A DNA stretch of 46,228 nt, from IMG/VR virus record IMGVR_UViG_3300043446_003463, positions 1-46,228 of that record; one strand, given 5' to 3'. Numbering within the stretch: the first letter of the stretch is position 1; each line of letters opens with the position of its first letter. The DNA is from a virus (lineage: Duplodnaviria; Caudoviricetes). The notes under the pieces were generated by a model. It had not been told where the DNA came from, ran no database searches, and saw only the letters and a list, made by a program, of their open reading frames with translations. A program made the translations under genes and the position numbers. Positions 5,391 through 38,226 of this stretch are shown one piece after another.

Positions 5391-5451
5391 ATCATGTCCT
5401 TTCGTGAAAACTCAACAAATCATATATATAGAGAGATAGGTAAACGTTTTT

Positions 5452-8004: not shown

Positions 8005-8021
8005 CGTCATAGTATAGCACA

Positions 8022-8900
8022 CTAAAATAATGCCGGCGCCAGACGTTCGGCATTAGTATCTAATCGGTCTTGTGCTAATTTCACATATTCAGGATTCAGT
8101 TCAATGCCAATATAGTTCCGACGTTCATTCTGTGCCGCAATACCTGTCGTCGCAGCGCCGTTGAACGGATCAAGAATCGTATCGCCTTGGTTGCTTCCCG
8201 CTTTGATACATAGCGTCGGGAGTTCTAACGGGAACGTCGCAAAGTGCGCGCCTTCAAAACTTTGTGTCGCAATTTTCCAGACCGACCGACGATTACGAAC
8301 GCCACGTTCTAGGACACCCTTTGCGGCACGGGTGAGCAATTCCATCGGGGATTGGACGCCTTCCGTATGCTTGTGCTTCGTGGGGTCGAACTGTTCGTTG
8401 GTATCGACCGCGTGTTGATACCGTTTCTTCGAACTCTCCGCAATCGGTTCCGCAATCGCATCCCCATTGAACAAATACTTCGGAGACTTCGAGAGCAGGA
8501 AGATGTATTCATGCGCTTTCGTACAACGGTCTTTCACCGACTCGGGCATTGGATTGGGTTTGTGCCAGATAATGTCTTGACGCAGATACCAGCCGTCCTC
8601 TTGCAGTGCGAAGGCGACCCGCCAAGGGATGCCTTGCAGTTGTTTCGCAATAATCGTATCCCCAAGATTAAGAAATAATGTCCCGTCATCTTTTAACACA
8701 CGACGAACCTCACGAAACACTTTCACGAGTTCCGCGACGAACTCCTGCGGACTCGGTTCTACGCCGATTTGCTCCGACATGCCATAATTGCGCAGTCCAA
8801 AATACGGCGGACTCGTCACACAGCACTGTATTGAGTTGTCGGGAAGTGTGGGGAGGATATCGCGAGTATCTCCAGTGAAAATTTTATATCGGTCGGTCAT
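8022..8900 (-). CDS. DNA methyltransferase, beta class (N4-C/N6-A), tandem paralog
   Basis: VTSPPYFGLRNY, GWYLRQDIIWHK, HFATFP, DPFNGAATT. Confidence 0.92.
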   Translation of the reverse strand: MTDRYKIFTGDTRDILPTLPDNSIQCCVTSPPYFGLRNYGMSEQIGVEPSPQEFVAELVKVFREVRRVLKDDGTLFLNLGDTIIAKQLQGIPWRVAFALQEDGWYLRQDIIWHKPNPMPESVKDRCTKAHEYIFLLSKSPKYLFNGDAIAEPIAESSKKRYQHAVDTNEQFDPTKHKHTEGVQSPMELLTRAAKGVLERGVRNRRSVWKIATQSFEGAHFATFPLELPTLCIKAGSNQGDTILDPFNGAATTGIAAQNERRNYIGIELNPEYVKLAQDRLDTNAERLAPALF

Positions 8901-19134: not shown

Positions 19135-19716
19135 TTATTTGTAGCCCTTCTGATACACAAGACGACTGAAAAAGCCTCGGGCCTCAGACATGCTATGGAA
19201 GACAAACTTATGCCCTTTGAATTTACTGTACATCTTACCGATAGTATTGGCATCCAACGAAAACGTGCCGATGGGTTCCAGTTTATTCGGGTTGCTCATA
19301 AATATCAGATAGGCCGTTGTCGTATTCCACGGTTTGAAGATGACCGCATCCTGCTGATACTTCGCGCCCGCTTTCTTGAGAAAGCCCTTGAGGTTTCCCG
19401 AGTCGTCCCCTTCACTTCCAATCACTAGGAACGATTCTTCCACCACCTGACGTTCTTCGGGGGTGCCTTCATTTTCGGGCCATGAACCTTGTACACGCAG
19501 ATAACCGAACCCCGCTTGACGAATATCGGTTTGTAGTTGTCGGTTACGCCCACGATTCTGGGCGACGGGAACGGAACTGCCGCCGCGGAATGCGGTGACG
19601 AACCCGATGTTGCGGTGTTGAATGTGCGAAAGAATCCGCGATAATCCGGCCTCATCGAGTTGCTGCCACTCAGCGGATGTTTCGTCGAGATATTCTAAAA
19701 AGGAAGGAACTGCCAT
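19135..19716 (-). CDS. Putative SAM lyase (T3 gp0.3/SAMase-like) with capsid-targeting-like N-terminus
   Basis: VTAFR...N..R...L...G.W.E...EES...QQDAVIFK..TTAYLI resembles T3 SAMase as I recall it (VSAFR, N..R, G.Y.E, EE, EQDCVLVY); N-terminus PSFLEYLDE. Confidence 0.6.
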   Translation of the reverse strand: MAVPSFLEYLDETSAEWQQLDEAGLSRILSHIQHRNIGFVTAFRGGSSVPVAQNRGRNRQLQTDIRQAGFGYLRVQGSWPENEGTPEERQVVEESFLVIGSEGDDSGNLKGFLKKAGAKYQQDAVIFKPWNTTTAYLIFMSNPNKLEPIGTFSLDANTIGKMYSKFKGHKFVFHSMSEARGFFSRLVYQKGYK

Positions 19717-21628: not shown

Positions 21629-21787
21629 AGTATATCCGATGACCCGTCCAAACACAAGTCCTTCGTGGAACCGTGGCAGTTTGCTATATACTAATAGTAA
21701 TCGCCGGTAACTCGGCACCCTCCGTGCGCGGGTGGCGTACGAACTAATAACGGCAGCGATGCTCGTTGTATTTTAGGAGAAACGAAT

Positions 21788-22255
21788 ATGGCAAATTTCG
21801 TCTATAATTATGGCAAGTTCCTTTTGGCAAACGGTAGTTTAAACTTGCTCACCGACAACATCGCGCTGTTGTTAGTGACGCCGGGCTATGAAGCGTCGAA
21901 CACCATTGCGAACCTCGCGGACGCGAACACCGTCCATGAGATCGCATCATACGAACTCACGACGGGTACTGTGTCTGGGTACGCACGGTATGCGCTCGCT
22001 ACCAAGTCCGTGTCGGAAACGGATGACGGCGGTACCTCGAACGGCTTTGCGTTCTTCAAGGCGGCGAACGTGACGTTCTCGTCGCTCGGTACTGGTAACA
22101 CGGTGGGTGGTTGCGTCCTGATTCGTCAGGGTGCGGATAACAATGCTTGCCCGCTCATCGCGTTCTACGACGTGGTGGACACCCCGACCAACGGTGGTGA
22201 TATCACGATTCAGTGGGCGTCGGACGCCAACGGTGGCGTGCTGAAACTCGCGTAA
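21788..22255 (+). CDS. Putative high-copy fibre subunit
   Basis: LLLVT..Y...E....GYAR..L...A.NVTF...LIAFYD...PTNGGDITIQW...GVLKL pattern of small phage tail/fibre proteins; AGGAGA SD; own terminator. Confidence 0.65.
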   Translation: MANFVYNYGKFLLANGSLNLLTDNIALLLVTPGYEASNTIANLADANTVHEIASYELTTGTVSGYARYALATKSVSETDDGGTSNGFAFFKAANVTFSSLGTGNTVGGCVLIRQGADNNACPLIAFYDVVDTPTNGGDITIQWASDANGGVLKLA

Positions 22256-22282
22256 TAGTTGTCTCCCCTCTCGTAATATCCC

Positions 22283-22320
22283 AACGCGCCGGCGGTCCTC
22301 GTCGGCGCGTTTTTTCTTTC
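22283..22320 (+). terminator. Rho-independent terminator after the 155-aa gene
   Basis: AACGCGCCGGCG-loop-CGTCGGCGCGTT followed by TTTTCTTTC. Confidence 0.85.
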
Positions 22321-22333
22321 CCTAAATATCCGT

Positions 22334-23809
22334 ATGGCAGCATCATATCCGACCACCGCAAAATCGTTTACGACGAAAAACAATGTCACCGACACGGTGG
22401 ATGCGTCGCATATTAATGATATTCAGTCTGAAGTGACGGCGGTGGAGACCGATCTGTTGAGTGCGACTCCGACCTATATCACCAAAGTCACCACAGGAAT
22501 CAATGCGTCGGCTCTCTCAACGGGCACACTCCCAGACGCCCGCTTGTCGGGGTCGTATACCAACGTCACTGCCCTCACCAGTAGCAACGGCACCTTCACC
22601 AATGTGCTCACCATCAACGCGGCCGTCATAACCGGAACTTTCACCGCCAACGGCGCGAATGGGAGCAGTGGTCAAGTGCTCACCACGAACGGTAGTGGGC
22701 TGTACTGGTCTACAGTATCTGGCGGGGGTGGTGGTGAAACCTCCAATAGCACGGGTGGGTCAGGGTCAATTCAGTATTACAACGGCACGACGTTTGGATC
22801 GTCCGCTAACTTGGTTTTCACGGGCACGACGGTGTTTGTGGGAAATAGCACCGCGAACGGCATCTACGGGCAGCAATCGCTCACGGTGGCGAATAGCACC
22901 AGCAGCGCCACGTTGAATGCAGGCACCTTGGTACTAGGCACGGGGAGTATCAATAGCACCGCGTATACCGGCACGGCGAACAATAGCACCTATGCGTTTG
23001 GAAAATCCGAGAACCAACTCAACGTCAATAGTGCGACGCAAGCCACGAATGCGACTAATCTGAATAGTCAGCCTGCGAGTTACTACACGAACGCCAGCAA
23101 TCTGGCGACGGGCACCTTGGCGATTGCACGGCTTGATGCAAACGTTATTTTGACCACGAGCACTACCGGCATTAATGCTTCGGCGCTCTCCACGGGCACC
23201 GTACCCAACGCACGATTAGATAGTAACATCATCTATACGACAAGCACCACTGGTATTAATGCGTCAGCCTTGTCTACAGGCACCGTACCCAATGCACGGC
23301 TAGACAGCAACATTATCTACACTACCAGCACGACGGGCATCAACGCTTCCGCACTGTCAGTCGGCACCGTGCCCAATGCCCGCTTGTCCGGATCCTACAC
23401 GGGCATCACGGCGCTCACGGTGTCTAATACTGTGACGATGGCGCGAGCGATTGAAAACTTTCAAACCTACGTCAACACAATCTCGGGCACACCCACGGTC
23501 ACATTCGACTGTACGACAGGCAATATTTGGAACATCACAGGCACTATTTCGAGCAACTGGACGGCCAACTTCACGAACCTCGGCTTAGCCAATAGTTACA
23601 CCACGGGCGTCACGCTTATTGTGAATCAAAACACGACCGCGTATCTGCCTACCGCAGTACAGATCGAAGGGAATGCCGTGACCCTCAACTGGCAAGCCGG
23701 CACACAACCGACACCCAACGCCAATAAGAAAGATATCTTTGCGTTCAGTGTGCTTCAGACGGGCGCCAGCACCTATTTGGTGATGGGTCAACTCGTCTCC
23801 TTCGGATAA
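22334..23809 (+). CDS. Tail-fibre-like protein
   Basis: ASYPT...DASHINDIQSEV.AVE N-terminus; GQVLTTNGSG.YW; tandem TTGINASALSTGTVPNARL repeats; C-terminal VTLIVNQ...W.AG..PT...DIFAF domain. Confidence 0.75.
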   Translation: MAASYPTTAKSFTTKNNVTDTVDASHINDIQSEVTAVETDLLSATPTYITKVTTGINASALSTGTLPDARLSGSYTNVTALTSSNGTFTNVLTINAAVITGTFTANGANGSSGQVLTTNGSGLYWSTVSGGGGGETSNSTGGSGSIQYYNGTTFGSSANLVFTGTTVFVGNSTANGIYGQQSLTVANSTSSATLNAGTLVLGTGSINSTAYTGTANNSTYAFGKSENQLNVNSATQATNATNLNSQPASYYTNASNLATGTLAIARLDANVILTTSTTGINASALSTGTVPNARLDSNIIYTTSTTGINASALSTGTVPNARLDSNIIYTTSTTGINASALSVGTVPNARLSGSYTGITALTVSNTVTMARAIENFQTYVNTISGTPTVTFDCTTGNIWNITGTISSNWTANFTNLGLANSYTTGVTLIVNQNTTAYLPTAVQIEGNAVTLNWQAGTQPTPNANKKDIFAFSVLQTGASTYLVMGQLVSFG

Positions 23810-23810
23810 T

Positions 23811-24635
23811 ATGCCACTTGTTACCTCTAGTTACAATCGGTCGTTTTACGCAGGCAGCCGGCCGTTCGTGATTACGAGCCTCGCCCAACTCCCTAACCTT
23901 GAAGTCGGCTATTCCGCTGGCATTATTGATGCATCGACGTTCAATAACGGATTGATTACCAGTGGCACCGAAATTACGTCGTGGCATAACTCGGGGGGTC
24001 TCTCCTCACACGACTGGAACTCCACCGGTGGTCAACGACCTGAATGGTATAGCGGTCTACAAAATGGGCACGGTGCTGTGCGATTCAACAACACCACCGC
24101 CGGTACTCCAAGTGGTGAAGATGCCGACACAAATGAAAATCTCACCATCAATCCCGTCACCTATCTCCAATCGCTCAGTGGCGCCACACAAGTGATTGCG
24201 TTTCGCACCTTATCCACCGCCACGGGTACTCGCTATTGCTGCTCTTCTGATGTGAATGGCTTTCAGTGGGGACAAAACGGCACGACGTGGATTGGTGGGT
24301 TCGCGGGGGCGACGTTCACCGTGAATACGCTTGTTGCGGATACCAACTTTCATATTGTCTCGTTGTGGTATGACGGATCACAGACGGGTAATGCGAATCG
24401 CTTGAAAGTGCGATTGGATGGTGTGCCGACCACGCTCACCTTCACGGGCACGGTGGGCGCAGCGACTTCTGCTGCCGCCAAATATTTTTATGGGGGTGCG
24501 ACGGGCACCTCGTCTTCCAACCAGTCCAACTTCTGGATCGGAGATATTGGTGATTTGTTTATTTGGACCCGCACCCTCACGTCGCCCGAACTCTTGGCGG
24601 CCGAAGATTATTTGATGAACTATTGGGCGATTTAA
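23811..24635 (+). CDS. LamG/concanavalin-like beta-sandwich protein (putative adhesin)
   Basis: ITSWHNSGG, RPEW...NG..AVRF, FHIVSLWYDG, VRLDG, WIGDIGDLFIWTRTL...EDYLMNYW. Confidence 0.7.
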   Translation: MPLVTSSYNRSFYAGSRPFVITSLAQLPNLEVGYSAGIIDASTFNNGLITSGTEITSWHNSGGLSSHDWNSTGGQRPEWYSGLQNGHGAVRFNNTTAGTPSGEDADTNENLTINPVTYLQSLSGATQVIAFRTLSTATGTRYCCSSDVNGFQWGQNGTTWIGGFAGATFTVNTLVADTNFHIVSLWYDGSQTGNANRLKVRLDGVPTTLTFTGTVGAATSAAAKYFYGGATGTSSSNQSNFWIGDIGDLFIWTRTLTSPELLAAEDYLMNYWAI

Positions 24636-24665
24636 CCGGCATCCTAAATATACTGGGATACGACT

Positions 24666-26600
24666 ATGCCATTACCTGATTTACTATCAACGAGTAACAC
24701 ATTCCGTCAGTGGTTGGCCACGACGAATAATCTTATCAGCCACGTCGATAATACGAGCGTATATATTTTGGTGTCCCAAAACGCTACGCCTCGCGTGTCC
24801 ACGGGCAATGCTGCGATTAATGGCACATTGACGATTGGCGCCACGGTTGCAAATACCACGACGGTTAGTGCGACTAATCTTGCCGGTAATGGTGCATCGG
24901 TCACTTCTGTGAATGCTGTAGCGTTGGGTGGTAAAACCGAAGCCAATCTCAATGTGAATAGCGCGACACAGGCAACAAACGCAACGAATCTGAATAGTCA
25001 GCCTGGGTCATACTATACAAACGCCAGTAATTTGGGCACAGGAACAGTTGCCGATGCGCGTATTTCTGGAGCGTATACTGGCGTTACGTCGTTGGCGTTA
25101 GGCGCGAATGTCACTGCAAATCTTACAACCGTGTTTGTGGGGAACAGTACTGCGAATGCTAGTCATACCGCCACATCACTCTCTGTCGCGAATAGTACCA
25201 ACACGGCGACACTGACCCCGGTATCACTGACGATTGGCACACAGGTCGCGAATACGACGGGATTCTATGCTGGCGCGAATGTATATGCGAATACGACGAC
25301 GGTGTTCTTTGGAAACACTACAGCAAATACCGTCGCAACATCCACTTCGGTTGCGATTGCCAACAGCACAAATACCGCCACGTTGACGCCGATATCGTTG
25401 ACGATTGGTACGCAAGTCGCGAATACGATTGGATTTTATTCGGGTGCCAACGTCTATGCGAATACGACGACGGTGTTCCTCGGCAATAGTACGGCAAATA
25501 CGGTCGCGACCAGTACTTCATTTGCTGTTGCGAATAGTACGAATACCGCGACACTCACACCGATATCACTGACGATAGGCACCACTGTCGTTAACACCAC
25601 CGCAGTCACTATCGGTGGTGGTACAGCACTCACGACATTGAGCACAACGGGTATTAATGCGTCAGCTCTTTCCACCGGTACGGTACCTGATGGTCGTATT
25701 TCCGGTGCTTATACCGGCGTAACTTCATTAGCACTTGGCGCAAACGTCGTGGCCAATGTGACCACTGTATTTGTCGGGAACAGTACCGCCAACGTTAGTC
25801 ATACCGCCACATCACTCTCTGTGGCCAACAGCACAAATACCGCCACGTTGACGCCGATATCGTTGACGATTGGTACGCAAGTCGCGAACACCATCGGCTT
25901 CTACGCCGGCGCCAACGTCTATGCGAACACGACGACGGTGTTCTTTGGAAACTCAACGGTCAACTCTGTCCATACGGCGACTTCATTGTCAGTAGCCAAT
26001 AGTACAAACGCCGCAACGTTGACCCCGATATCTTTGACAATTGGTACACAAGTCGCAAATACCATCGGTTTTTACGCTGGTGCAAACGTTTATGCTAATA
26101 CCACGACCGTGTTCTTTGGGAACTCGACCGTTAACTCAGTGCATACCGCCACGTCATTATCTGTCGCGAATAGTACCAATACCGCCACGTTAACGCCGAT
26201 TTCTTTGACGATTGGCGGCACAGTTACAAATACAACAACGGTGTTCCTCGGAAACAGCACAGTTAATAGTGTGGCTACGGCAACGTCAATTGCAGTTGCC
26301 AACAGCACAAATACAGCGACCCTAACGCCCATCTCGTTGACGATTGGCACTCAGGTTACTAATACCGTTGGATTTTATGCGGGTGCGAACGTCTATGCGA
26401 ATACGACGACCGTATTCTTCGGAAACAGTACCGTCAACTCGGTCCATACCGCCACATCGTTGTCCGTGGCGAATAGTACCAACACCGCGACATTGACAGC
26501 GATTTCATTGTCCATCGGCTTACAAGTCATTAACACCGCCGGCGTATTCTCCAACTCGGCGCTCGTCATTCCAGTCGGGCTAAATAAGTACGCAACCTAA
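24666..26600 (+). CDS. Asn/Thr-rich repetitive fibre protein
   Basis: NTFRQWLATTNNLI N-terminus; recurring ~58-aa unit ANSTNTATLTPISLTIGTQVANTIGFYAGANVYANTTTVFFGNSTVNSVHTATSLSV. Confidence 0.75.
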   Translation: MPLPDLLSTSNTFRQWLATTNNLISHVDNTSVYILVSQNATPRVSTGNAAINGTLTIGATVANTTTVSATNLAGNGASVTSVNAVALGGKTEANLNVNSATQATNATNLNSQPGSYYTNASNLGTGTVADARISGAYTGVTSLALGANVTANLTTVFVGNSTANASHTATSLSVANSTNTATLTPVSLTIGTQVANTTGFYAGANVYANTTTVFFGNTTANTVATSTSVAIANSTNTATLTPISLTIGTQVANTIGFYSGANVYANTTTVFLGNSTANTVATSTSFAVANSTNTATLTPISLTIGTTVVNTTAVTIGGGTALTTLSTTGINASALSTGTVPDGRISGAYTGVTSLALGANVVANVTTVFVGNSTANVSHTATSLSVANSTNTATLTPISLTIGTQVANTIGFYAGANVYANTTTVFFGNSTVNSVHTATSLSVANSTNAATLTPISLTIGTQVANTIGFYAGANVYANTTTVFFGNSTVNSVHTATSLSVANSTNTATLTPISLTIGGTVTNTTTVFLGNSTVNSVATATSIAVANSTNTATLTPISLTIGTQVTNTVGFYAGANVYANTTTVFFGNSTVNSVHTATSLSVANSTNTATLTAISLSIGLQVINTAGVFSNSALVIPVGLNKYAT

Positions 26601-26621
26601 TAGTGTGAGGATGTATTCTGA

Positions 26622-27932
26622 ATGGCGAAACAAGCAGGCAGTTTATGGGTCTACAATACCGAATTACATTATGTGGACCAATTCAATCAAGAATGGTATT
26701 TTATCGGCACATCTGTCGGTACTCCTGCTGGCGCCAAAGTTGGTAGTCTGTGGATTGACGGTACCGATTTTCATTACATTGATAGCGCCGGCGCCGACCG
26801 CACACTGCCTGCATCTTTGATCGGTGCAGCAACAGCCCGTCAAGGATCTATTTGGATTCAAACGTCCGCAGCGAATAATTCATCCCTTCACTATATCGCA
26901 AATACCGCAAGCAACAACGAGTACGCTGCTCATAGTGACACCGCCCATACGGACGCACACACAGACACGGCGCACACAGACGCGCATACCGACACGGCGC
27001 ACACAGACGCGCATACCGACACGGCGCACACCGACGCACACACAGACACGGCCCATACGGACGCACACACAGACACGGCCCATACGGACGCACACACAGA
27101 CACGGCCCATACGGATGCGCACACGGACACCGCGCACACCGACGCGCACACCGATATTGCGCATACCGATGCCCATACGGACATTGCGCATTCGGACGCG
27201 CATTATGATGCTCCGTTCAGTAGTTCACATTCGAATGCGCATACCGATGCCCCGTTCAGTAGTTCACATTCGAATGCACATACCGATAACACTGATTATT
27301 CACCGGGGTTTGTAGGGCCTGGATATGCGATTCGTGGATGTAGTTGTTATTCCGAATATTATGTGGGGTATCAGCCATCACCACAAGCCTGTGCGAGTTA
27401 TTGTGTTGCAAACTATAACAATTGTTATCTCGCCGCGGAATGGTATCAGGACGGGTCTTGTTGGTGCGAGCCAAACTGCGGGGATTGTTATGCAGCAGAC
27501 GGATATGGCGGCTGGACTGCGCTGCTACTTACATGCTATACCACCCCAATATATACCAATAGTCATAGCAATGCACATTATGATGCCCCGTTCAGTAGTT
27601 CACATTCAAACGCACATTATGATGCCCCGTTCAGTAGTTCGCACACCAATGTGGCACGAAATATATCACACAGTGACGTGTCCAGAGTTGCCACTCATAA
27701 TGATATTTCATTTGTAAATAGTCACAATGACGTGTCATTCGTGAATAGTCACAATGACGTGTCATTCGTGAATAGCCATAGTGACGTATCGTTTGTAAAT
27801 AGTCACAATGATGTCTCGTTCGTGAATAGTCATAGTGACGTATCGTTTGGAAACAGTCATAATGATGTCTCATTCGTAAACAGTCATAGTGACGTATCCC
27901 ACGTTGATCAACCCACGTTTGTTGGAGTATAA
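26622..27932 (+). CDS. His-rich repeat protein with central Cys-rich domain (putative metal-binding needle adhesin)
   Basis: Three GS(L/I)W..T..HY(I/V) units; (HTDTAHTDA)n; Cys-rich core; (HNDVSFVNS)n. Confidence 0.8.
   Translation: MAKQAGSLWVYNTELHYVDQFNQEWYFIGTSVGTPAGAKVGSLWIDGTDFHYIDSAGADRTLPASLIGAATARQGSIWIQTSAANNSSLHYIANTASNNEYAAHSDTAHTDAHTDTAHTDAHTDTAHTDAHTDTAHTDAHTDTAHTDAHTDTAHTDAHTDTAHTDAHTDTAHTDAHTDIAHTDAHTDIAHSDAHYDAPFSSSHSNAHTDAPFSSSHSNAHTDNTDYSPGFVGPGYAIRGCSCYSEYYVGYQPSPQACASYCVANYNNCYLAAEWYQDGSCWCEPNCGDCYAADGYGGWTALLLTCYTTPIYTNSHSNAHYDAPFSSSHSNAHYDAPFSSSHTNVARNISHSDVSRVATHNDISFVNSHNDVSFVNSHNDVSFVNSHSDVSFVNSHNDVSFVNSHSDVSFGNSHNDVSFVNSHSDVSHVDQPTFVGV
26932..27200 (+). repeat. 27-bp coding tandem repeat (HTDTAHTDA), about 10 units
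   Basis: e.g. CACACAGACACGGCCCATACGGACGCA repeated with synonymous variation. Confidence 0.85.
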
Positions 27933-27935
27933 CGT

Positions 27936-28217
27936 ATGCCACAACTTCCACAAAATTTTCAATGGCCGGGAAATGTTATATTGGCAAGTACGCTTGGTCT
28001 AACGGGAGAGTTTCCCGACACGCTCACGTATGAGAACCGAGCATATCGCAAAATTGGCCCCACGTATTATCTCGACCCTACATTATTAAGGGCAAATAAT
28101 ACCATTGTTGAGGCCAACCGCATAGTGATTGGCTACGTATATGAGACCTCACCTCAACTTGGTAGCGTCGAAAAACTTCGAATTGGCGACGATTCATTAA
28201 CGGCATCCGCTAACTAA
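27936..28217 (+). CDS. Hypothetical protein
   Basis: 93-aa ORF starting 3 nt after the His-rich gene; GGAG SD. Confidence 0.6.
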   Translation: MPQLPQNFQWPGNVILASTLGLTGEFPDTLTYENRAYRKIGPTYYLDPTLLRANNTIVEANRIVIGYVYETSPQLGSVEKLRIGDDSLTASAN

Positions 28218-28238
28218 AGAATTTTCCTAAATACCAGT

Positions 28239-28592
28239 ATGGTTCATCACGAGCACCGCTGCGACTCTGTAGAGGTTGCAACCGTTACACCGGGGAACGC
28301 TAGTATTCTTCCTGGCACGGTAGTCGTGTGTCTTGAATCCATTGTCGTAGACGTGCCGGTGCTTGTGTATGCGACGCCCCACCAGTGGGGAGAAATCCAA
28401 GAAGACAATTTATTTGACGGGTATGCTAAAACATTTAATGGTCGAGGGCCGCCTCAGCAGATATGGAACGATACCCGCCAGATATCCCCCCTCAGTATTA
28501 CAACGTACCCGATCCTAACGGGTATTATTTCGACAGTTCCGTCATTTTCTCTCACCAGCATTGACCCATGCGGAGGTATAGCGCATGGCTAG
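28239..28592 (+). CDS. Hypothetical protein
   Basis: CTAAATA 5 nt before the ATG; overlaps the start of the giant gene. Confidence 0.5.
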   Translation: MVHHEHRCDSVEVATVTPGNASILPGTVVVCLESIVVDVPVLVYATPHQWGEIQEDNLFDGYAKTFNGRGPPQQIWNDTRQISPLSITTYPILTGIISTVPSFSLTSIDPCGGIAHG

Positions 28593-31500
28593 CGATCGTG
28601 TATTTTATTATGCGGAATTCGTCAATGCGATCAGTAATATCTCAACGACGGATAATACCGCCGTCACCGTAACATTTACTCCCAATCCGAGTAAATCGTA
28701 TGCGTATATTTGGTCGGCGCAAGCGGAAGCGGGCAGCACTAACTTTGACGTTAACGTCAAACTGAAAAAAGATGGCACGGCGATTGCGTCGGTCAATATC
28801 GAAGATAAAGATACAGCAGACTGGCATCCGGTTTCGGGTGTCTATGCGGAAACCTTTAATGCGACTCCTGCGCAAGTCAGTCTGACGATTACTGCGGCAA
28901 GTGAATCGGGAAGTTCAGCGGATATTCGAGAAGCCCGTATCCTTGTCCTAGAGCTGGGCAGTAATGATACGTTTGGAGGAAACACCAGCACATCCAACAC
29001 TACCAGCACCGCGTTTAGCACAGCGGTCGGAGTCACATGGACACCGGGAAGTGCTGAAGATTACATCGTCTTAGGATCACAGGAAGCCACGTTTAGTGCG
29101 GCCGGTGAATTCATTACTCGTATTAATCACGGCGGCACGGCGTATGGAACCGCCACACCACGACCAAAAGATTCCACGAATTTTTATGGGGGTATGCACG
29201 CCGTATACCTGTCCAGTCTGAGCGGCGCGCAGACGGCCAACATTGAATTTGCGCGAAGCGCGACGGCTACAGGAACAGCATCATGTCGTAACGCACAAGT
29301 CGTCGTCTTACGTGTATCAGATTTCCCTGCGGTGTGGCAGGCCAGTAACAGAACCCGCGCCACAACAACCGCCGCCACAGCAACAGTCCGATCGAACGCC
29401 GCAACGACGGTAGTGACTACGGCTCGTGTCGCCGTTATTGGTGCGTCTGTTCGGGATCACAACGCAACCAATGAATCGGCGCTGTCTGATATTGCGGAAA
29501 ACGGTACCGCTCTTGTAGGCACCACGTCGCAGGAAGCACAGGTTGCCTCGACCACCATCGACGTACCGTCAAGTCCGTGGGGACAAGTAGTCGTCAAATA
29601 TCCTGTCGCAGCAAGCGCCTCGTATACGACGCGGTATTGGTCAGAAGTGAGCGGAACCTCGACTGGTATTAGCGATTCACAAATTGTTGTGATGCGGCTG
29701 GAATACCCAAACCAGACAGTTTCCGCTGGAACAAATACAATTACAGCAACAGATGCCACTGCGACTCGATCGACCACAACAAATAAGTCGGCCGGAACAA
29801 ATACGATTACGGAGACTGCCGGTGCGGCAACGAGGTCCGCGTCGAAGAACCTTGCGGCCGGAACCAATACGATTGCGATAACCGATGCGACTGTCACTCA
29901 AACGAGCGGCGCCACAAATAAGTCGGCCGGAACCAATACAATTACCGTGACCGCGGCCGAAGAAACCATTGCTGAACAAATAACGGTATCGACTGGCACA
30001 AATACCATTACAAGTTCCGCACCAACGGTAATACTCTCGGCATCACAAACAGTCGTTCTATCTACAAATCCGCAGACAAGCGATATTACTGCGCCGATGG
30101 TTACGCAAAGTTTTGGTATTACTCTTGCCGTTAATACCAACGAAGTATATACCCCCTATCTTGATGTTCCCGTCGAGACCTATGGGGATACGCCCGTTCA
30201 AGAGTTTCTCGAACCACACCCCGATATTCTAAACGTTGAAGCGGGGCCCGCAGAAATTCCGGGAACCCGTTTAGTTGTTTCAAATAATACACTCACACTG
30301 GTTGCTTCTACTATTAGCACATCGGTGAATCGCCCGTATCTGGTCGCCGGCAATAGTATCACGCTCACGGCCGCGGAAGAAACCACGCATCTAGTTATTC
30401 CGATCACCGCCAGTATCATCACCCTAACGGCGCCGACCGAAACGGTTCATCTTGCGATTTCAGTCGCCAGCAATACGCTGCGAATTATTGCGTCCGAGGA
30501 AACCACCCATCGCGATGTGCCGGTGGCCACGAATACGATTACGCTCACAGCTGGCGAAGAAACCACGCATCTGGTTATTCCAGTCGCCATTAATATACTC
30601 ACGCTCACGGCCGCTGAAGAGACCACGCATCGTGTGGTATTGGCCGCGACGAGTACCATTATCACCTCCGCCCAAGCAATCACCGGACATCTCTTTGTGC
30701 CGGTCGCCACGAATACAATAACACTACGTGCGGGTGAAGAAACTGAACACGTTGTCATTCCGGTCGCCACCAATACAGTGACACTAACTGCGGCCGAAGA
30801 GACGACACATCGGGTGATACCGGTCGCGACCAATACGATTACACTCCAGGCAACGGCAACGACCACACATCTCGTTATTCCCGTATTCGTGAATACGCTC
30901 ACCCTGACGGCCGCCGAAGAGACCGAGCACGTTATCATTCCCGTCACGACCAATAGCATCGTTGCGGTAGCATCGGCGCTCACGCTCCATCAGGGTGCGT
31001 TAGTAACCAGTAGCACGATTACGACTGTTGCAAATGGCGTCACACCGCATCTGTTCATTTCCGTTGCCACCAACACGCTCACGCTCACGGCCGCCGAAGA
31101 AACGGAATATGTAACTATTCCGGTAGCCACAAACAGCATGACGCTATCGGGTGGGAATGTTACAGTACATCAAGTCGCGTTGGTAGATACCAATACCATT
31201 ACTCTAACTGCAAATACCGCCACAGCAGTGAGTGCCGCCGCGGTGATTAATGTAAATGCAGCCGTAATTGATACGTCAAATGGTGCCTTACGCCTTGGTC
31301 TTGTTCTCAAAGTCAATACCAACGAAGTGATTCTGCCGTTCAATACGGTGCCGATTGCCGGCTACGAAGACGTACCGATTAGCGACTTTTACAATCCGGC
31401 GCCCGATGTGCTGTCTCCGAACGGGCCGACGGCCATACTGGCGGCAGGCGCAGTGTCTCGCGGCACAAATGTTAATATTTTCACCGTCACCGCAAACACC

Positions 31501-34500
31501 GCGACGCTTGCATTTGGATTATCCACTAACGTCAACACGATCACGCTCAGTGCGGAAGAAGCTCGCATTGCTGAAACTCTACTAGAGACCGACACCGCAA
31601 GTATTGGTAGTAGTGCGCCGGCGGCGACACGCATCGCGACACTCTCTCGCGCCGCAGCAACCACGACACTCACCGTCACCGCACAAACCGTGACGCTGCA
31701 TCAAGGGGTTCTTGTTGCCGCGGGAACAATTACTGCCTCGGTCGGTGCGATTACTCCGCATCTATTCGTACCGGTAGCCACCAATACGATTATCGTTCGT
31801 GCCGGTGAAGAAACCGAGCACGTCGTTACTCCTGTGGCCACGGCGACTATCCGCCTCTCGGCCCAAACGGTCACACTCCATCAAGTTATACTGGTTGCGA
31901 CCGCTACGATTCGAATTACCGCAAGTGAAGAAACCGCATACGTGGTCATTCCTGTCGCCACGAATACCATCACACTGACGGCAGCGGAAGAAACCACGGC
32001 AATTGATACACCGGTTTCGGTGAATACGCTCACCGCATCGGCACCAAACGTCACGACGCACTTGGTCGTCCCCGTGGCGACGAACACCATCACGTTCACG
32101 GCGGCAGAAGAAACCGAATATGTGTTTGTGCCGGTCACCGCCGCAACAGTCGTCAGCAGTGTATCGTCAGTGACGATGCATGTGAGTATTCCGGTTACGG
32201 TTAACACGCTCACACTCACGGCAGCGGAACAAACCGAGCATCTCGTCATACCAGTGACGACCAACACGCTCACGCTCACCGTGGGAGCCGTTACAGCACA
32301 TCTATTTGTGCCCATTACGCACAATGACGTAACCATTACGTCAAATACCATAACGGTGCATCTGGTTGTACCCGTTGCGACCAACCGCATTATTGTGACG
32401 GCACAAGATGAAACCATCCATCTGGCCATCCCTGTTGCGACAAACACCGTGACGTTGACGGCCGCCGAAGAAACCGAGCATCTGGTTATTCCGGTGGCGA
32501 CAAATACCATTATCGTCACGGCGGAAAATCAAACGACCCATCTGGTTCTCCCCGTCGCGGTCAATACGATTATCGTGACCGCAGAAGAAGAAACGTCACA
32601 TCTCGTCATTCCGGTCGCAACAAATAGTATCACACTGACGGCCGCCGAAGAGACCGAGCACGTTGTCATTCCCGTGGCCACGAATACGCTCACGCTCACG
32701 GCCGCGGAAGAGACGGCGCACCTCATGGTGCCCGTGACCGTCAACATCATTGGAGTATCCGCACAAGAGATCACCGAGCATCTCACCGTGCCGATTGCTA
32801 CAAATACAATCGTTCTGACCGCAGCGGAGGAAACGACCGTCCTCGTTGTGCCTGTCGCAACCAATGAAATAACGGTCACCTCGAATGATGTAACATCACA
32901 TCTGTTCGTACCGGCCGCGACCAATACGATTACACTCACGGCGGCCGAAGAGACCGAACATGTATTTGTGCCGGTGTCGGTCGCAACGGTGGCGATTACC
33001 GCACAGAATGTCACTGAGCATCAAGTCATTCTCGTTGCCGTGAACACGATCACACTCACCGCGGCCGAAGAAACCGAGCATGTGTTTATGCCGGTGGCGA
33101 CGAACGTGATTGTGGCGGTCGCACAGAATGTCACCGAGCATCTGGTCATCCCTGTCGCAACCAACCGTATTCGTGTATCGGCGGAAGAAGCAACCACGCC
33201 TCTGGTGATTCCGGTCGCCACCAACACGATCACATTAACGGCGGCGGAAGAAACCACTGTCCTTATCGTTCCTGCCGCAACCAATACGCTGACGATTACC
33301 GCCGGTGAGGTGACCGAACATCAAGGCATTCTGGTCGCCACCAGTACGATTACACTCACCGCAGCCGAAGAGACCACGCATCGCGTCGTGCCCGTGGCGA
33401 CAAACACCCTCACGCTCACCGCCGCAGAGGAAACAGAGCACGTCGCGATTCCTGTGGCGACCAACACGATTGTGCTATCGGCTGATGCCGTCACTGAGCA
33501 TCAAGGTCTCTTGGTCGTCACCAACACAATCGCCCTCATCGGTAATGCAATCACCGAGCACCTCTTCGTACCGGTCGCGACCAACACGGTGACACTGACG
33601 GCGGCGGAAGAAACGACGGCTATATTTGTTCCCGTCGCCGTTAACACGCTCACGCTCACGACCAACGCCGTCACGATGCATCTGGCGATTCCTGTCGCCA
33701 CCAATACGATTACGCTCACCGCCGCAGAGGAAACCGAGCATCTGGTCGTACCAGTTAACACGGCAACCCTCACGAGCAGCGTGTCTGCAATCACCGTGCA
33801 TCAGGGTATCCTTGTTGCCACCAATACGATTACGCTGACGGCGTCGGAAGAGACGACACATCGGGTGGTACCGGTAACGACGAACACGGTGACATTCACG
33901 GCCGCGGAAGAGACCGAACATCTGTTCGTGCCGGTCGCCACCAACATACTCACACTTACCGCTGAAGAAGAGACCGAACATCTCGTCATTCCTGTCGCCA
34001 CCAATACCCTCACGTTGACGGCCGCCGAAGAGACGGAACATGTGTTTGTACCGGTCGCGACGAATACGATTACGCTCACGGCCGCGGAAGAGACCGAACA
34101 TCTGTTCGTGCCGGTCGCAACAAATACCGTTGATATAGTTGTGCCGACGGTGACGGAACATCAAGGCATTCTGGTCGTGGCCGCGACGATTCGTATTACC
34201 GCCGAAGAAGAAACTGAACATCTTGTGATACCGGTCGCCGTGAATACGATTACGCTCACGGCCGCAGAAGAAACCACGCATCTGGTCGTGCCGGTTACCG
34301 CGGCGACGATCATTGTTATCGCAAACGCCATCACCCTACATCAAGTCGTGCTTGTGTCCACGAATACGGTAGATCTCTCAGCATCTGCCGTGACGCTGCA
34401 TCAGGGTGCGTTAATAGCAACTAATCCGATTGTGATGAGTGCAAGTGCGACCACGACGCATCTGTTCGTGCCTGTCGCGGCCAACGCCCTCACGCTCACG

Positions 34501-37500
34501 GCGGCCGAAGAAACCGAACATCTCGTTATTCCTGTCGCGACCAACATCATCGCGGTCACCGCCGGAGAAGAAACTACGCATGTGTTCATGCCGGTGGCGA
34601 CGAATACGATTACGCTCACGGCCGCCGAAGAGTCCTTAGTGTTCATTATGCCGGTCGCGACGGGCCCGATAATCATATCCGCACAGGATATCGTCGAACA
34701 TCAAGGCATTCTGGTTGCGACGAGTACGCTCACCCTCACTGCCGCCGAAGAGACCGAACATGTGTTCATGCCGGTGGCGACGAATCGACTGGACCTCACC
34801 GCACAAGATACAACCGTCTTCGTGTTCGTACCGGTCAACACCAATAGTATCACAGTTGTGGCAGGAGCAGTCACCGAGCATCAGGGTCTCTTGGTCGCCA
34901 CGAATACGATTACGCTCACGGCTGCGGAAGAAACTGAACATCCGGTCGTACCCGTGGCAACAAATGCGATTGGGATGTCGGCAAACGCAGTCACGGAACA
35001 TCTGACGATTCCCGTTGCGACCAACACGATTGACGTAATCAGCAATACGATAACCGAACATCTAACGATCCCTGTCGCCACCAATACGATTACGCTCACC
35101 GCGGCTGAAGAGACCGAGCATCTGTTTGTGCCGGTGGCGACGAACACCATCATCGTCACGGCTGAAAACGAAACGACGCATCTGAGTATTCCTGTTGCGG
35201 CGACGACGATTATTATCTCCGCACAAGACGTGACTACACATCTCGTTGTGCCGGTGGCCACCAATACGATTACGCTGACGGCGTCGGAAGAGACCGAACA
35301 TGTGTTCATGCCGGTCGCAACGAATATTATTACACTCACCGCCGGCGAAGAAACCGAACATCTGTTCGTGCCCGTGGCGACCAATACGATTACGCTCACT
35401 GCCGCCGAAGAGACCGAACATGTGTTCATGCCGGTGACGATGAATCAGATCGACGTGACGGCGCAAGATACCACGGTATTCCTCTCGATGCCCGTCGCAG
35501 CCACCACACTGACCCTCACGGCCAATGACGTGACGGAACATCAGGGCATTCTGGTGGCCACCGCAACGATTGCTATTACGGCCGCCGAAGAGACCGAACA
35601 TGTGTTCATGCCGGTGGCGACGAATACCATTACGACCTCGGTGAATGCGGTCACCGTGCATCAGGGTATACTGGTCGCGACCAATAGTATCACACTGTTT
35701 GCCGATGCCGTCACGGAACATCAAGGCATACTGGTCGCAACGAATACGCTCACGCTCACCGCGGCGGAAGAAGCCGCCTATCTGTTCATACCGGTGGCGG
35801 TGGCAACACTCATTATCACCGCACAGGAGAGCACTACACATCTCTTCGTGCCCGTCACCACCAATACACTGACACTGACGGCCGCCGAAGAAACCGAGCA
35901 TGTGTTTATGCCGGTGGCGACGAACACGCTGGTAATCAGTGCTCAGACAGTGACGACGCATCTGTTCGTGCCGGTGGCCACCAATACGATTACGCTCACC
36001 GCAGCGGAAGAAACTCAACATCTCTTCATGCCGGTGGCGACGAATACAATCACGTTCACCGCCGCCGAAGAAACCGAACATCTGTTCGTGCCGGTGGCCA
36101 CCAATACACTGACGGTGACCGCAGGTGAGGTGACTGAGCATCAGGGCATTCTGGTTGCGACGAACACCATTACGATTACGGCCGCTGAAGAAACCGAGCA
36201 TCTAGTCGTACCCGTCGCCACGAATATGCTGACCGTTTCGGGTGGAGCGGTCACCGAGCATCTCACGATACCGGCTGGATTCAATACAATCAATATTGTT
36301 ACAGGTAGCGTGACCTCTACCAGTCTGTTTGTGGTAGAGACCAACCTTATCAACGTCACAACCGCCGAAGGTAGTGTGTGTAGTGTGTATGGTGACTTTA
36401 ACTATGGGTCGCAACCATATGGCTGTACGGCAGAAGAGGCGGGGGTTCTTATTCACCTCACCATGCCGATGGCGACCAATATTCTATATCTGTCGGCACC
36501 AGAAGAAACGACACACCTGAATGTCTCTGTCGCAACGGGGGCGATTGATATTACGGCGCCCGCAACAACCGAGCATCTCGCGATTCCGGTGGCGACTAAT
36601 ATTATTACCGTGAGCGCCGGCGACGAAACCCTCACGGTCGTCATTCCGGTCGAGCCGGCCACCTTGACGGTAAGTGCGGGCGAAATCAGTACCGCATTAA
36701 CGATGCCCGTGTCCATTAACACACTCGATATTACCGCCGAGGTGGTTACTGAGCATCAGGGTATTCTCCTCGACCCTGCCGCAATTACGGTGACAGCGGA
36801 ACCTGTCGCCGCGTATATCATCATTCGCGTTGACACTAATATTCTGACCGTGACGGCGGCGGAAGAAACCGAGCATCTGTTTGTGCCCGTCAGTGTCAAT
36901 GCTGTGACGCTGACGAATGGTGCGGTGACAATGCACCTTGCGGTGCCGATCGCGACCAATACACTCATCCTCACCGCCGCCGAAGAAACCGAACATCTCT
37001 TCGTGCCCGTCGCCACCAATACACTGACACTGACGGCCGCCGAAGAAACCGAGCATGTGTTTATGCCGGTGGCCACGAATACGATTATGCTCACGGCGGC
37101 GGAAGAAACGACACATCTGTTCGTGCCCGTGGCGACCAATACGCTCATTCTCATCGCGGGTGAAACGACATCACATCTCTTTGTGCCTGTCGCGACCAAC
37201 ATCATCACGTTTACCGCTGGAGAAGAAACTGAGCATGTGTTTGTGCCGGTGGCGACGAATATTATTATACTCACGGCCGCCGAAGAGACCGAACATCTGT
37301 TCGTGCCGGTCGCAACAAATACCGTTGATATAGTTGTGCCGACGGTGACGGAACATCAAGGCATTTTGGTGGCGACCGCGCCGATTCGTATTACCGCCGA
37401 AGAAGAAACTCAACATCTCTTCATGCCGGTCGCGACCAATACAATCTCACTCACGGCGGGTGAGGAAACCGAGCATCAGGGCATTCTGGTTGAATCAAAT

Positions 37501-37920
37501 AGGATTGACCTGACGAACGGTGCGGTCGTGGCACATCAAGTGCAGTTGGTGGACACGAACCGCATCACGCTCATCCCGACTGATACCTCAATCTTCGTGT
37601 CTGGTGTGATTGATGAGTCGGCGGTTATTGTGGTTATTGCTGGTGATGTGGTTGCGTACTACAATGCTCGTCGCGACGTAGATACGAATACCATCACACT
37701 TACGGCGGCGGAAGAACGTACCAATCTCGTCATATTAGTTGAATCGAATACCATCCGTCTAGAGATTGGTGGTATCGATATGACAGTGGTAGCACCAGCA
37801 GAGTCGATGATCGACGCGCAACTCTTTGTCGTGGAACCGAACTTCGATACGTATCTTGTGCCATCGTATTCAGAAACGACCTTTGCGGTGGAACCAAACG
37901 ACGACACCTTTTACATCTAA
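28585..37920 (+). CDS. Giant 3111-aa repeat protein (putative fibre rope/ruler)
   Basis: Uninterrupted ORF with GGAGG SD; ~370-aa beta-rich N-domain, then about 130 x 20-aa repeats (HLxVPVATNTITLTAAEETE). Confidence 0.9.
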   Translation: MASDRVFYYAEFVNAISNISTTDNTAVTVTFTPNPSKSYAYIWSAQAEAGSTNFDVNVKLKKDGTAIASVNIEDKDTADWHPVSGVYAETFNATPAQVSLTITAASESGSSADIREARILVLELGSNDTFGGNTSTSNTTSTAFSTAVGVTWTPGSAEDYIVLGSQEATFSAAGEFITRINHGGTAYGTATPRPKDSTNFYGGMHAVYLSSLSGAQTANIEFARSATATGTASCRNAQVVVLRVSDFPAVWQASNRTRATTTAATATVRSNAATTVVTTARVAVIGASVRDHNATNESALSDIAENGTALVGTTSQEAQVASTTIDVPSSPWGQVVVKYPVAASASYTTRYWSEVSGTSTGISDSQIVVMRLEYPNQTVSAGTNTITATDATATRSTTTNKSAGTNTITETAGAATRSASKNLAAGTNTIAITDATVTQTSGATNKSAGTNTITVTAAEETIAEQITVSTGTNTITSSAPTVILSASQTVVLSTNPQTSDITAPMVTQSFGITLAVNTNEVYTPYLDVPVETYGDTPVQEFLEPHPDILNVEAGPAEIPGTRLVVSNNTLTLVASTISTSVNRPYLVAGNSITLTAAEETTHLVIPITASIITLTAPTETVHLAISVASNTLRIIASEETTHRDVPVATNTITLTAGEETTHLVIPVAINILTLTAAEETTHRVVLAATSTIITSAQAITGHLFVPVATNTITLRAGEETEHVVIPVATNTVTLTAAEETTHRVIPVATNTITLQATATTTHLVIPVFVNTLTLTAAEETEHVIIPVTTNSIVAVASALTLHQGALVTSSTITTVANGVTPHLFISVATNTLTLTAAEETEYVTIPVATNSMTLSGGNVTVHQVALVDTNTITLTANTATAVSAAAVINVNAAVIDTSNGALRLGLVLKVNTNEVILPFNTVPIAGYEDVPISDFYNPAPDVLSPNGPTAILAAGAVSRGTNVNIFTVTANTATLAFGLSTNVNTITLSAEEARIAETLLETDTASIGSSAPAATRIATLSRAAATTTLTVTAQTVTLHQGVLVAAGTITASVGAITPHLFVPVATNTIIVRAGEETEHVVTPVATATIRLSAQTVTLHQVILVATATIRITASEETAYVVIPVATNTITLTAAEETTAIDTPVSVNTLTASAPNVTTHLVVPVATNTITFTAAEETEYVFVPVTAATVVSSVSSVTMHVSIPVTVNTLTLTAAEQTEHLVIPVTTNTLTLTVGAVTAHLFVPITHNDVTITSNTITVHLVVPVATNRIIVTAQDETIHLAIPVATNTVTLTAAEETEHLVIPVATNTIIVTAENQTTHLVLPVAVNTIIVTAEEETSHLVIPVATNSITLTAAEETEHVVIPVATNTLTLTAAEETAHLMVPVTVNIIGVSAQEITEHLTVPIATNTIVLTAAEETTVLVVPVATNEITVTSNDVTSHLFVPAATNTITLTAAEETEHVFVPVSVATVAITAQNVTEHQVILVAVNTITLTAAEETEHVFMPVATNVIVAVAQNVTEHLVIPVATNRIRVSAEEATTPLVIPVATNTITLTAAEETTVLIVPAATNTLTITAGEVTEHQGILVATSTITLTAAEETTHRVVPVATNTLTLTAAEETEHVAIPVATNTIVLSADAVTEHQGLLVVTNTIALIGNAITEHLFVPVATNTVTLTAAEETTAIFVPVAVNTLTLTTNAVTMHLAIPVATNTITLTAAEETEHLVVPVNTATLTSSVSAITVHQGILVATNTITLTASEETTHRVVPVTTNTVTFTAAEETEHLFVPVATNILTLTAEEETEHLVIPVATNTLTLTAAEETEHVFVPVATNTITLTAAEETEHLFVPVATNTVDIVVPTVTEHQGILVVAATIRITAEEETEHLVIPVAVNTITLTAAEETTHLVVPVTAATIIVIANAITLHQVVLVSTNTVDLSASAVTLHQGALIATNPIVMSASATTTHLFVPVAANALTLTAAEETEHLVIPVATNIIAVTAGEETTHVFMPVATNTITLTAAEESLVFIMPVATGPIIISAQDIVEHQGILVATSTLTLTAAEETEHVFMPVATNRLDLTAQDTTVFVFVPVNTNSITVVAGAVTEHQGLLVATNTITLTAAEETEHPVVPVATNAIGMSANAVTEHLTIPVATNTIDVISNTITEHLTIPVATNTITLTAAEETEHLFVPVATNTIIVTAENETTHLSIPVAATTIIISAQDVTTHLVVPVATNTITLTASEETEHVFMPVATNIITLTAGEETEHLFVPVATNTITLTAAEETEHVFMPVTMNQIDVTAQDTTVFLSMPVAATTLTLTANDVTEHQGILVATATIAITAAEETEHVFMPVATNTITTSVNAVTVHQGILVATNSITLFADAVTEHQGILVATNTLTLTAAEEAAYLFIPVAVATLIITAQESTTHLFVPVTTNTLTLTAAEETEHVFMPVATNTLVISAQTVTTHLFVPVATNTITLTAAEETQHLFMPVATNTITFTAAEETEHLFVPVATNTLTVTAGEVTEHQGILVATNTITITAAEETEHLVVPVATNMLTVSGGAVTEHLTIPAGFNTINIVTGSVTSTSLFVVETNLINVTTAEGSVCSVYGDFNYGSQPYGCTAEEAGVLIHLTMPMATNILYLSAPEETTHLNVSVATGAIDITAPATTEHLAIPVATNIITVSAGDETLTVVIPVEPATLTVSAGEISTALTMPVSINTLDITAEVVTEHQGILLDPAAITVTAEPVAAYIIIRVDTNILTVTAAEETEHLFVPVSVNAVTLTNGAVTMHLAVPIATNTLILTAAEETEHLFVPVATNTLTLTAAEETEHVFMPVATNTIMLTAAEETTHLFVPVATNTLILIAGETTSHLFVPVATNIITFTAGEETEHVFVPVATNIIILTAAEETEHLFVPVATNTVDIVVPTVTEHQGILVATAPIRITAEEETQHLFMPVATNTISLTAGEETEHQGILVESNRIDLTNGAVVAHQVQLVDTNRITLIPTDTSIFVSGVIDESAVIVVIAGDVVAYYNARRDVDTNTITLTAAEERTNLVILVESNTIRLEIGGIDMTVVAPAESMIDAQLFVVEPNFDTYLVPSYSETTFAVEPNDDTFYI
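29710..37790 (+). repeat. 60-bp-period degenerate coding tandem array
   Basis: Consensus close to CATCTGTTCGTGCCGGTCGCGACCAATACGATTACGCTCACGGCCGCCGAAGAAACCGAG; three non-repeat interruptions. Confidence 0.9.
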
Positions 37921-37944
37921 CGGGTAGGAAGGATAAATACGCAT

Positions 37945-38226
37945 ATGGCATTTATTGTTGGCACACTCACCAAAGACCCTGACGAAACCCGTCTCTACAA
38001 GATGGATTGGTCCGCGCATTTAGGGCAAGAGACAATTGCAAATTCCGCATGGGCGATTCCTGCGGGGTTGACACTTGTCGCGAACGGGATTGTTGAAGGG
38101 AACAATAAGACCTATGTCACGCTTGCCGGTGGCGAAACCGGCAAGACCTACGTCATTACCAACACGGTCTATACCAGCAACAGCCAAATTTGGCAACGCA
38201 GCGGTCGTCTTGACGTGCGGTCATAA
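37945..38226 (+). CDS. Putative fibre-tail adaptor protein (Ig-like)
   Basis: KDPDE...Y..DW...L..ETI..S.W..P.GLT...V.L.GG..G..Y...N.V......RS pattern; ATAAATA 5 nt upstream. Confidence 0.7.
   Translation: MAFIVGTLTKDPDETRLYKMDWSAHLGQETIANSAWAIPAGLTLVANGIVEGNNKTYVTLAGGETGKTYVITNTVYTSNSQIWQRSGRLDVRS

Follow-up and report, generated by a model that had tools for sequence, protein, structure and literature searches.

A candidate chain fiber built on a rope of about 130 repeats in a T4-like virus genome

The window analyzed in this study is a 46,228-base virus record (IMG/VR record IMGVR_UViG_3300043446_003463) whose T4-type replication module lies on the minus strand. Flanked by these T4-like replication genes, a nine-gene island on the plus strand (positions 21788 to 38226) opens with the gene for a 155-amino-acid protein, here called the bead (21788..22255), and closes with those for a 3,111-amino-acid repeat protein, the rope (28585..37920), and a 93-amino-acid adaptor (37945..38226). 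In our judgment, these proteins probably form a chain fiber of the type seen in phages GP4, A1002, and Bas63, in which the rope threads about 130 bead dimers, is anchored on the adaptor, a Gp77 protein, and carries a lectin-like head at its end. Both the predicted fold of the bead and the family of the adaptor are those of this known design, which would be present here in a much larger form; the fiber is likely to exceed every solved one in length by a factor of roughly ten, and this length is likely to be set by the number of repeats.

Bead, adaptor, and rope

The bead matches the PHROG family phrog_644 with an expect value (E) of 6e-15, and its AlphaFold2 model has a predicted local distance difference test (pLDDT) score of 95. 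The model was compared with 48,161 PDB representatives, of which three reached a Z score of 8 and nine a Z score of 5; eight of these nine are virion parts. The closest matches are a baseplate chain of phage KP1 (9f4a_AY; Z, 12.3), Bxb1 gp31 (PDB 9D93; Z, 10.3), which is known here only by its name "tail wing arm," and the GP4 fiber subunit gp80 (8jou_a; Z, 9.7), the last with a root mean square deviation of 2.8 and 120 residues aligned over residues 4 to 154. The likeness to the GP4 fiber subunit that an initial annotation of this DNA had expected is thus borne out by model comparison. The GP4 fiber structure (PDB 8JOU) is reportedly the work of Zheng et al. in 2023. Lower matches include an HFTV1 tail chain (Z, 7.6), a 108-residue Sf14 neck chain that is probably the Sf14 whisker (7.1), a phi812 baseplate chain (5.8), phiKZ gp139 (5.4), and a chain from the tail-fiber entry of phage 7-7-1 (5.0). 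Foldseek placed Bxb1 gp31 first and gave GP4 gp80 the best query TM-score among the matches listed (0.53; E, 1.7), with no match to the bead model at an E of ≤0.001. Among PDB sequences, the bead profile matched Bxb1 gp31 only (E, 0.0023), and single-sequence searches with the bead and the adaptor gave no match; a tblastn search with the bead found none in 50,697 cultured phage records. The KP1 chain is a 1,031-residue baseplate protein of this Klebsiella phage, aligned over residues 114 to 623, and the HFTV1 tail chain, of 953 residues, matches too; therefore, the bead fold seems to be built into large baseplate proteins.

The adaptor identity proposed for the 93-residue protein was confirmed in Pfam, where it matches PF23148 (E, 1.9e-17; 64 bits against a cutoff of 27), the Gp77 family described as "podophage GP4 fiber-tail adaptor." The same domain is carried by 28/28 adaptor homologues, and a search of viral_contigs with the adaptor gave no match.

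Periodicity dominates the rope, whose lag-20 identity is 0.369, compared with 0.100 ± 0.005 in 200 shuffles. There are 112 gap-free 20-residue repeats in three blocks of 15 (residues 586 to 885; 30340..31239), 79 (residues 1023 to 2602; 31651..36390, without an indel), and 18 (residues 2628 to 2987; 36466..37545), and four 22/23-residue versions of the repeat (29722..29988) precede them. Profile sites raise the count to 120 and tiling to about 132 units, and the earlier estimate of about 130 repeats is a fair one with degenerate and 22-residue copies included. Each repeat consists of two strand-like halves, one at positions 5 to 11 (hydrophobic at 7, 9, and 11) and the other at positions 14 to 20 and into position 2; proline occupies position 1 in 84/112 copies, and each repeat has a net charge of −1.7. 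The second strand is conserved on both faces (T15 in 105/112 copies and H17 in 94/112, with positions 18, 20, and 2 hydrophobic in 73 to 96%), a two-faced pattern in the sequence that fits an enclosed strand.

The repeats share a mean pairwise identity of 48% in protein and 55% in DNA, the third codon position differs in 64% of comparisons with an identical amino acid, and no exact DNA repeat is longer than 84 nucleotides (nt). Four of the 12 listed sequencing runs were examined; X1, possibly the source sample, covers the rope at a flat depth of about 10 to 18 with contig breaks near the exact repeats, and X3, X4, and X9, which come from three other studies, hold diverged rope pieces. Because the third positions have diverged, the exact repeats are short, and the runs cover it, the array is old and real, and an assembly artifact was rejected on the same grounds together with the flat depth and the diverged pieces in other studies. 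In X3 record 11, from a related strain, a contig links position 32084 back to 30601 (window 30601-32084) via 187 other letters; this junction, which we read as a 1,671-nt, 557-codon in-frame unit, suggests block duplication or reordering of the rope.

Outside the repeats, the rope begins with a head of three paralogous nonrepeat domains of about 125 residues each (the first 378 residues; 28585..29718), which match one another in blastp with E values of 2e-8, 5e-5, and 3e-3. The head gave a lead to the BC2L-C N-terminal (TNF-like lectin) type with an Atlas score of 0.93, its recognition being below the tool's bar, and is treated here as a lead only. Two nonrepeat inserts (30100..30279 and 31285..31470), 46% identical over 41 residues, are possible docking loops, and the first of them is also present in relatives L198 and L199. 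A third, Tyr-Gly insert (36388..36465) is like the N-terminal motif of short ropes; the motif is found inside L199 as well as at the N terminus of L201 to L203, L117, and P0123. The rope ends in two copies of a 12-residue motif (37825..37917), which occurs in one to three copies at the C terminus of 15/15 related ropes and in none of the rope bodies, a conservation by which it is probably the anchor to the adaptor. At one locus (L207:3-452), a Ser-rich protein of 10-residue repeats with the same C-terminal motif stands before the Gp77 gene; therefore, the anchor can carry another repeat type.

Gene linkage and rope length among relatives

Across phages, bead genes and genes for periodic proteins occur together. 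A periodic open reading frame (ORF; period of 19 to 24) lies on the same strand at 50 of 86 bead loci, some of which come from the same phage, and at 34 of the 48 bead loci that have at least 5 kb of downstream sequence. In the background, only 2 of 51 chance loci have such an ORF (Fisher P, 2e-11 versus bead loci, kinship not corrected); this set consists of 80 listed motif-match loci minus 29 with the match in the periodic ORF itself, with 31 unlisted loci left out. Minus-strand ORFs were rejected as a linkage control, since they mirror the repeats in antisense. In the reverse test, the bead was found in 8 of 15 records chosen for a periodic ORF, compared with 3 of 34 without one. Over 40 bead-rope pairs, with the bead and repeat of the window as the reference, bead similarity and repeat similarity are correlated (Spearman, 0.61); the correlation between rope length and repeat score in the same pairs is 0.37.

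The rope directly follows the bead gene in many phages, and homologous modules sit within head-neck-tail clusters in other phages. The order bead-rope-Gp77 was found in four podovirus-like contigs (L117, L122, L142, and L156) that were recovered by the repeat motif alone, as well as in two cultured phages of Microcystis, Mwe-JY26 and Mae-JY04 (PP395637.1; proteins WWT39679, WWT39678, and WWT39677), the bead of Mae-JY04 being assigned by position and sequence inspection, as the profile gave no score. In Mwe-JY26 (L211:4671-5750; PP438418.1; proteins XAI96038, XAI96042, and XAI96043), the rope passes from a block of 23-mers to one of 20-mer-like repeats, and there are two candidate bead genes, reminiscent of A1002 with its two types of bead. 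Elsewhere (L034:2488-3323), two equally scoring copies of the bead gene form an inverted pair, which may be an assembly artifact. The co-occurrence of all three genes that had been anticipated held only in part: beads and periodic proteins travel together, but among 50 more distant records with a bead, Gp77 was found in just 2, and the three-gene set is therefore not general. In these distant records, other small genes, which we take to be those of BppU-like adaptors, often come after the rope.

A close family of 13 metagenome loci was fetched with the adaptor alignment. In 12 of them, the rope of this family is directly upstream of the adaptor, and the 13th has a Ser-rich repeat with the same C-terminal motif in that place. 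Complete ropes of relatives have 592, 694, 754, 1,026 (two loci), and 1,132 residues. The rope of L199 (L199:2-9976), open at its 5′ end on a contig with 1.9 kb more, has at least 3,324 residues, in which blocks of 22-mers alternate with blocks of 20-mers for a total of at least 146 units; because this relative is longer, the rope of the window is neither unique nor the longest. The close relatives keep the adaptor and the C-terminal motif of the rope while rope length ranges from 592 to at least 3,324 residues. Ropes that are 93 to 98% identical differ by 102 (4 × 20 + 22) and 60 (3 × 20) residues, and the natural series of repeat numbers runs 28, 33, 36, 41, 50, 132, and at least 146. In these sequences, rope length changes by whole units while both ends are kept.

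Direct searches returned few relatives. No relative of the rope was found in viral_contigs or among proteins of 1,711 to 5,445 residues, and none of the rope head in metagenome_contigs. Of 1.84 billion representatives, the repeat profile matched only 12, and two of these (P0128 and P0130) look unrelated. Rope and repeat searches are weak on low-complexity sequence, and the giant relative L199 exists nonetheless.

Proposed architecture and competing explanations

Solved rope-and-dimer fibers hold 2 to 11 dimers. Fiber I of the Ralstonia podophage GP4 consists of five gp80 dimers on a separate rope protein, with gp77 as the fiber-tail adaptor (PMC13730344, PMC12609058). The module in the window resembles it in the gp80-fold small subunit, the Gp77 adaptor, and the separately encoded candidate rope, whereas about 130 docking repeats stand against 5 dimers and a T4-like genome against that of a podophage, the bead is only 11% identical to gp80, and the rope of the window has a three-domain head and internal inserts. 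In the Pseudomonas podophage A1002, 11 gp40/gp41 dimers form an augmented sheet with the nozzle-rope protein gp39 over about 300 Å, the rope being residues 243 to 468 plus two short segments (PMC13730344). These 226 to 268 rope residues for 11 dimers give 20 to 24 residues per dimer, a spacing like the repeat period of the window, and in both ropes the anchor is C-terminal and the globular domain N-terminal; unlike the rope of the window, that of A1002 holds 11 dimers over about 30 nm, is fused to the nozzle, and carries two bead types. Bead dimers completed by a rope also occur in a myophage. In the collar-whisker of Bas63, each collar rope carries two whisker dimers and completes their incomplete β-sandwiches (PMC12609058), and the N-terminal helix of our bead model (residues 7 to 15) resembles the helix described for the Bas63 whisker; the Sf14 neck chain likewise matches the bead. 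Unlike the arrangement proposed for the window, Bas63 and Sf14 have two dimers per rope, and the collar protein itself supplies this rope as its N-terminal arm.

Two further relatives of the bead fold belong to arms. The baseplate arm of Staphylococcus phage 812 comprises the scaffold gp117, whose strands fill gaps between dimers, six arm-segment dimers, and docking loops for receptor-binding trimers (PMC13433997). This arm and Bxb1 gp31 both match the bead, but they are short baseplate or tail-tip arms with no long tandem array, and the descriptions consulted mention no Gp77 adaptor. Cyanophage A-1(L) has a beaded neck fiber of about 100 nm whose genes are remote from its other structural genes (PMC10966104). 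In being long and beaded and in its remote operon this fiber is like the one proposed for the window; unlike it, the A-1(L) fiber is described as trimeric beads arranged head to tail without a rope, and its fold differs as far as the comparison went, since it is not among the structural matches of the bead. A literature search, with most subscription journals outside its coverage, found no rope with tens to hundreds of repeats.

In the chain fiber that we propose, the rope would run mostly extended, each of its about 130 repeats being clamped by a dimer of the gp80-fold bead. By analogy with the solved homologues, the two short strands of a repeat (positions 5 to 11 and 14 to 20) would complete the open β-sandwiches of both monomers, and about 260 beads would be held per rope. 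One repeat probably holds a dimer, not a monomer, because A1002 uses 20 to 24 rope residues per dimer; on this spacing, the one subunit per repeat of the initial annotation, which implied about 100 to 130 beads, probably has to be given up. The C-terminal motif would anchor the rope on a ring of Gp77 adaptors, the three-domain head at the far tip would be a single-chain pseudo-trimeric lectin, and the nonrepeat inserts would act as docking loops for side proteins such as those of the cargo genes described below. Repeat number would set the length, which would be about 0.35 μm at A1002 packing (27 Å per dimer); the length of up to about 0.9 μm expected earlier stands as an upper bound, at about 0.87 μm for 2,650 fully extended residues of 0.33 nm each. 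Such a fiber would most likely serve to catch glycans or appendages on the host surface, reversibly and at long range, in dilute water.

Several observations weigh against this proposal. The bead itself has no Pfam Gp80 match, and weak Gp80 matches occur in only 4 of 113 aligned bead homologues (best E, 0.028). Its fold is found in baseplates and garlands as well (a KP1/T4 wedge-size chain, the phi812 arm segment, and the 7-7-1 garland), and for this reason the fold alone fixes neither the site nor the partner of the bead. Fourteen of the 48 bead loci with at least 5 kb downstream are without a periodic ORF, and the scarcity of Gp77 in the more distant records counts on the same side. Of the 13 close adaptor loci, only L209 shows the bead, the others being mostly cut short; each of the five closest bead contigs is likewise a fragment and stops before reaching the rope position, the relatives being 6 to 31% complete. 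In the 46-kb window, a Pfam scan found no head, neck, or tail genes.

The folding of the repeats is a further point of this kind, and it brings in the best supported of the other explanations. Eight repeats modeled alone with AlphaFold2 gave a regular β-solenoid with two strands per repeat (best pLDDT, 75; predicted template modeling score, 0.64), which tells partly against the initial annotation. The model resembles many unrelated β-helices, none of them specifically (Z, 10 to 13.6; 3 to 14% identity), β-rolls are also among its structural matches, and Foldseek gave no match to it at an E of ≤0.001. The repeats, whether single or oligomeric, could by themselves form a rigid shaft with some 130 rungs and a length of about 60 nm (0.48 nm per rung) that bears the lectin-like head, with the bead coating it from outside or binding something else. 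Such a shaft suits the strictness of the period and the alternation of hydrophobic residues at positions 7, 9, and 11, and whole-repeat indels fit it equally well. We nevertheless regard it as unlikely. The other four models had pLDDT scores of 61, 59, 56, and 36, the array had been aligned to shifted copies of itself, a procedure that favors periodic contacts, and no known rope was folded as a control. At a net charge of −1.7 per repeat, glutamates at positions 13, 14, and 16 would stack, conserved hydrophobic residues on one face of the second strand would be left exposed, and L199 mixes 20- and 22-mer blocks in one chain; the linkage and co-divergence with the bead would also go unexplained. 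The prediction was discounted in part because of the shifted-copy alignment, the missing rope control, the stacking glutamates, and the unexplained linkage.

It is more doubtful still that the bead is a garland or baseplate-arm polymer, formed alone or on some other scaffold, and that the repeats are coated by a subunit encoded elsewhere. The 7-7-1 garland and the arm segment of phi812 do have this fold (PMC12796354, PMC13433997), 6.3 kb separates the bead gene from the rope gene, and the record lacks most of the genome. However, repeat type tracks bead subfamily across unrelated phages, the adjacency of rope and bead genes in many phages ties the two together, and in a periodicity check of the island genes, the period of 19 to 24 was absent from all except the rope. 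That the module makes a filament in or on the infected cell instead of a virion fiber is very improbable, for although the island lies among replication genes, apart from any structural cluster, so do the A-1(L) neck-fiber genes lie remote from other structural genes (PMC10966104), the close structural matches of the bead are all virion parts, homologous modules stand inside head-neck-tail clusters, and five island genes carry the TAAATA motif discussed below.

Beyond the chain fiber proposed for the window itself, we suggest, as a broader reading slightly less likely than not to be right, that mostly freshwater T4-like phages build templated sub-micrometer filaments, several head diameters long, in which one rope counts about 130 to 150 bead dimers, with a single-chain pseudo-trimeric lectin tip and side branches at docking loops, and that these are retuned at least 5-fold between relatives as whole 20/22-residue units are gained and lost. 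The rope would then be a second, freely tunable tape measure, for a non-tail appendage. If this is true, the same design reaches about 130 to 150 units and 0.35 to 0.9 μm with its length encoded repeat by repeat, uncultured aquatic phages possess a long capture line, and the fiber is a genetically programmable filament whose length is readable from the gene. It would also offer a candidate make-up for long flexible phage fibers of unknown protein, such as the 7-7-1 capsid fibers, whose component proteins are described as unknown (PMC12796354). The natural series of repeat numbers makes the ruler idea directly testable.

The island and its flanking genes

As initially annotated, the island is on the strand opposite to the rest of the window; the 155-, 3,111-, and 93-residue ORFs and six more genes between them are all on the plus strand. 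The strong Shine-Dalgarno sequence reported for the bead gene corresponds to a Shine-Dalgarno-like AGGAG (21775..21779, plus strand) 8 nt before its start. Its own terminator is less certain. An intrinsic-terminator-like hairpin and T run follow the gene (22283..22321, plus strand; 13 pairs, 9 of them G-C; a consensus match only), and the region contains 24 terminator-like sites, of which the hairpin plus T run at 22283 to 22311 is the strongest, but shuffles give 18.4 ± 5.3 such sites, and the number alone is therefore not significant. A scan for sigma-70 promoters found about as many as expected by chance (19 versus 18.1). TAAATA, which is presumably the T4-type late promoter motif, has nine copies on the plus strand, seven of them inside the island and five of these 11 to 41 nt ahead of gene starts; on the minus strand there are 13 copies in the window and 0 inside the island. 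One copy stands 11 nt upstream of the adaptor gene. The bead gene is without an exact TAAATA, and the rope gene, whose start overlaps the stop of the preceding 117-residue gene (28239..28592; TAAATA 11 nt upstream), is without a copy of its own.

The remaining plus-strand genes of the island lie between the bead gene and this 117-residue gene and include two probable fibers. The first, a 491-residue cargo protein with 28-residue repeats (22334..23809; TAAATA 11 nt upstream), has no match in Pfam, PHROG, or NCBIfam, and the second, a Thr/Asn-rich cargo protein of 644 residues with repeats of about 44 residues (24666..26600), has none above the curated cutoff. A 274-residue cargo gene (23811..24635) separates them, again with no family match in Pfam, PHROG, or NCBIfam, and a further 93-residue cargo gene (27936..28217) gave no assignment in Pfam or PHROG. 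Between the second probable fiber and this small gene is encoded a 436-residue protein (26622..27932) in which two arrays of 9-residue His-x-Asp repeats surround a Cys-rich middle; it has 43 His and 10 Cys residues, a charge of −43, and three Trp-containing repeats at its N terminus. No Pfam or PHROG family and no usable Atlas match was found for it, and it may be a metal-stitched hairpin needle.

The T4-like genome type proposed at the outset agrees with the Pfam matches of the replication module, which comprise a family B polymerase, clamp, clamp loaders, RegA, a DnaB-like helicase, an intein-bearing UvsX, dUTPase, and PhoH. The polymerase is 36 to 40% identical to those of T4-like cyanophages and Methylophilales phages, and no tRNA genes were found in the window. 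In the RecA/UvsX gene (4833-6963, minus strand), the intein fragments are distributed over two ORFs (6058-6963 and 4833-5390) with a 163-residue ORF between them, which reads as a split or interrupted intein. A 193-residue protein (19135-19716, minus strand) matches S-adenosylmethionine lyase (PF23780; E, 3e-13), and the same genome carries two adjacent N6/N4 DNA methylases at 7093-8900.

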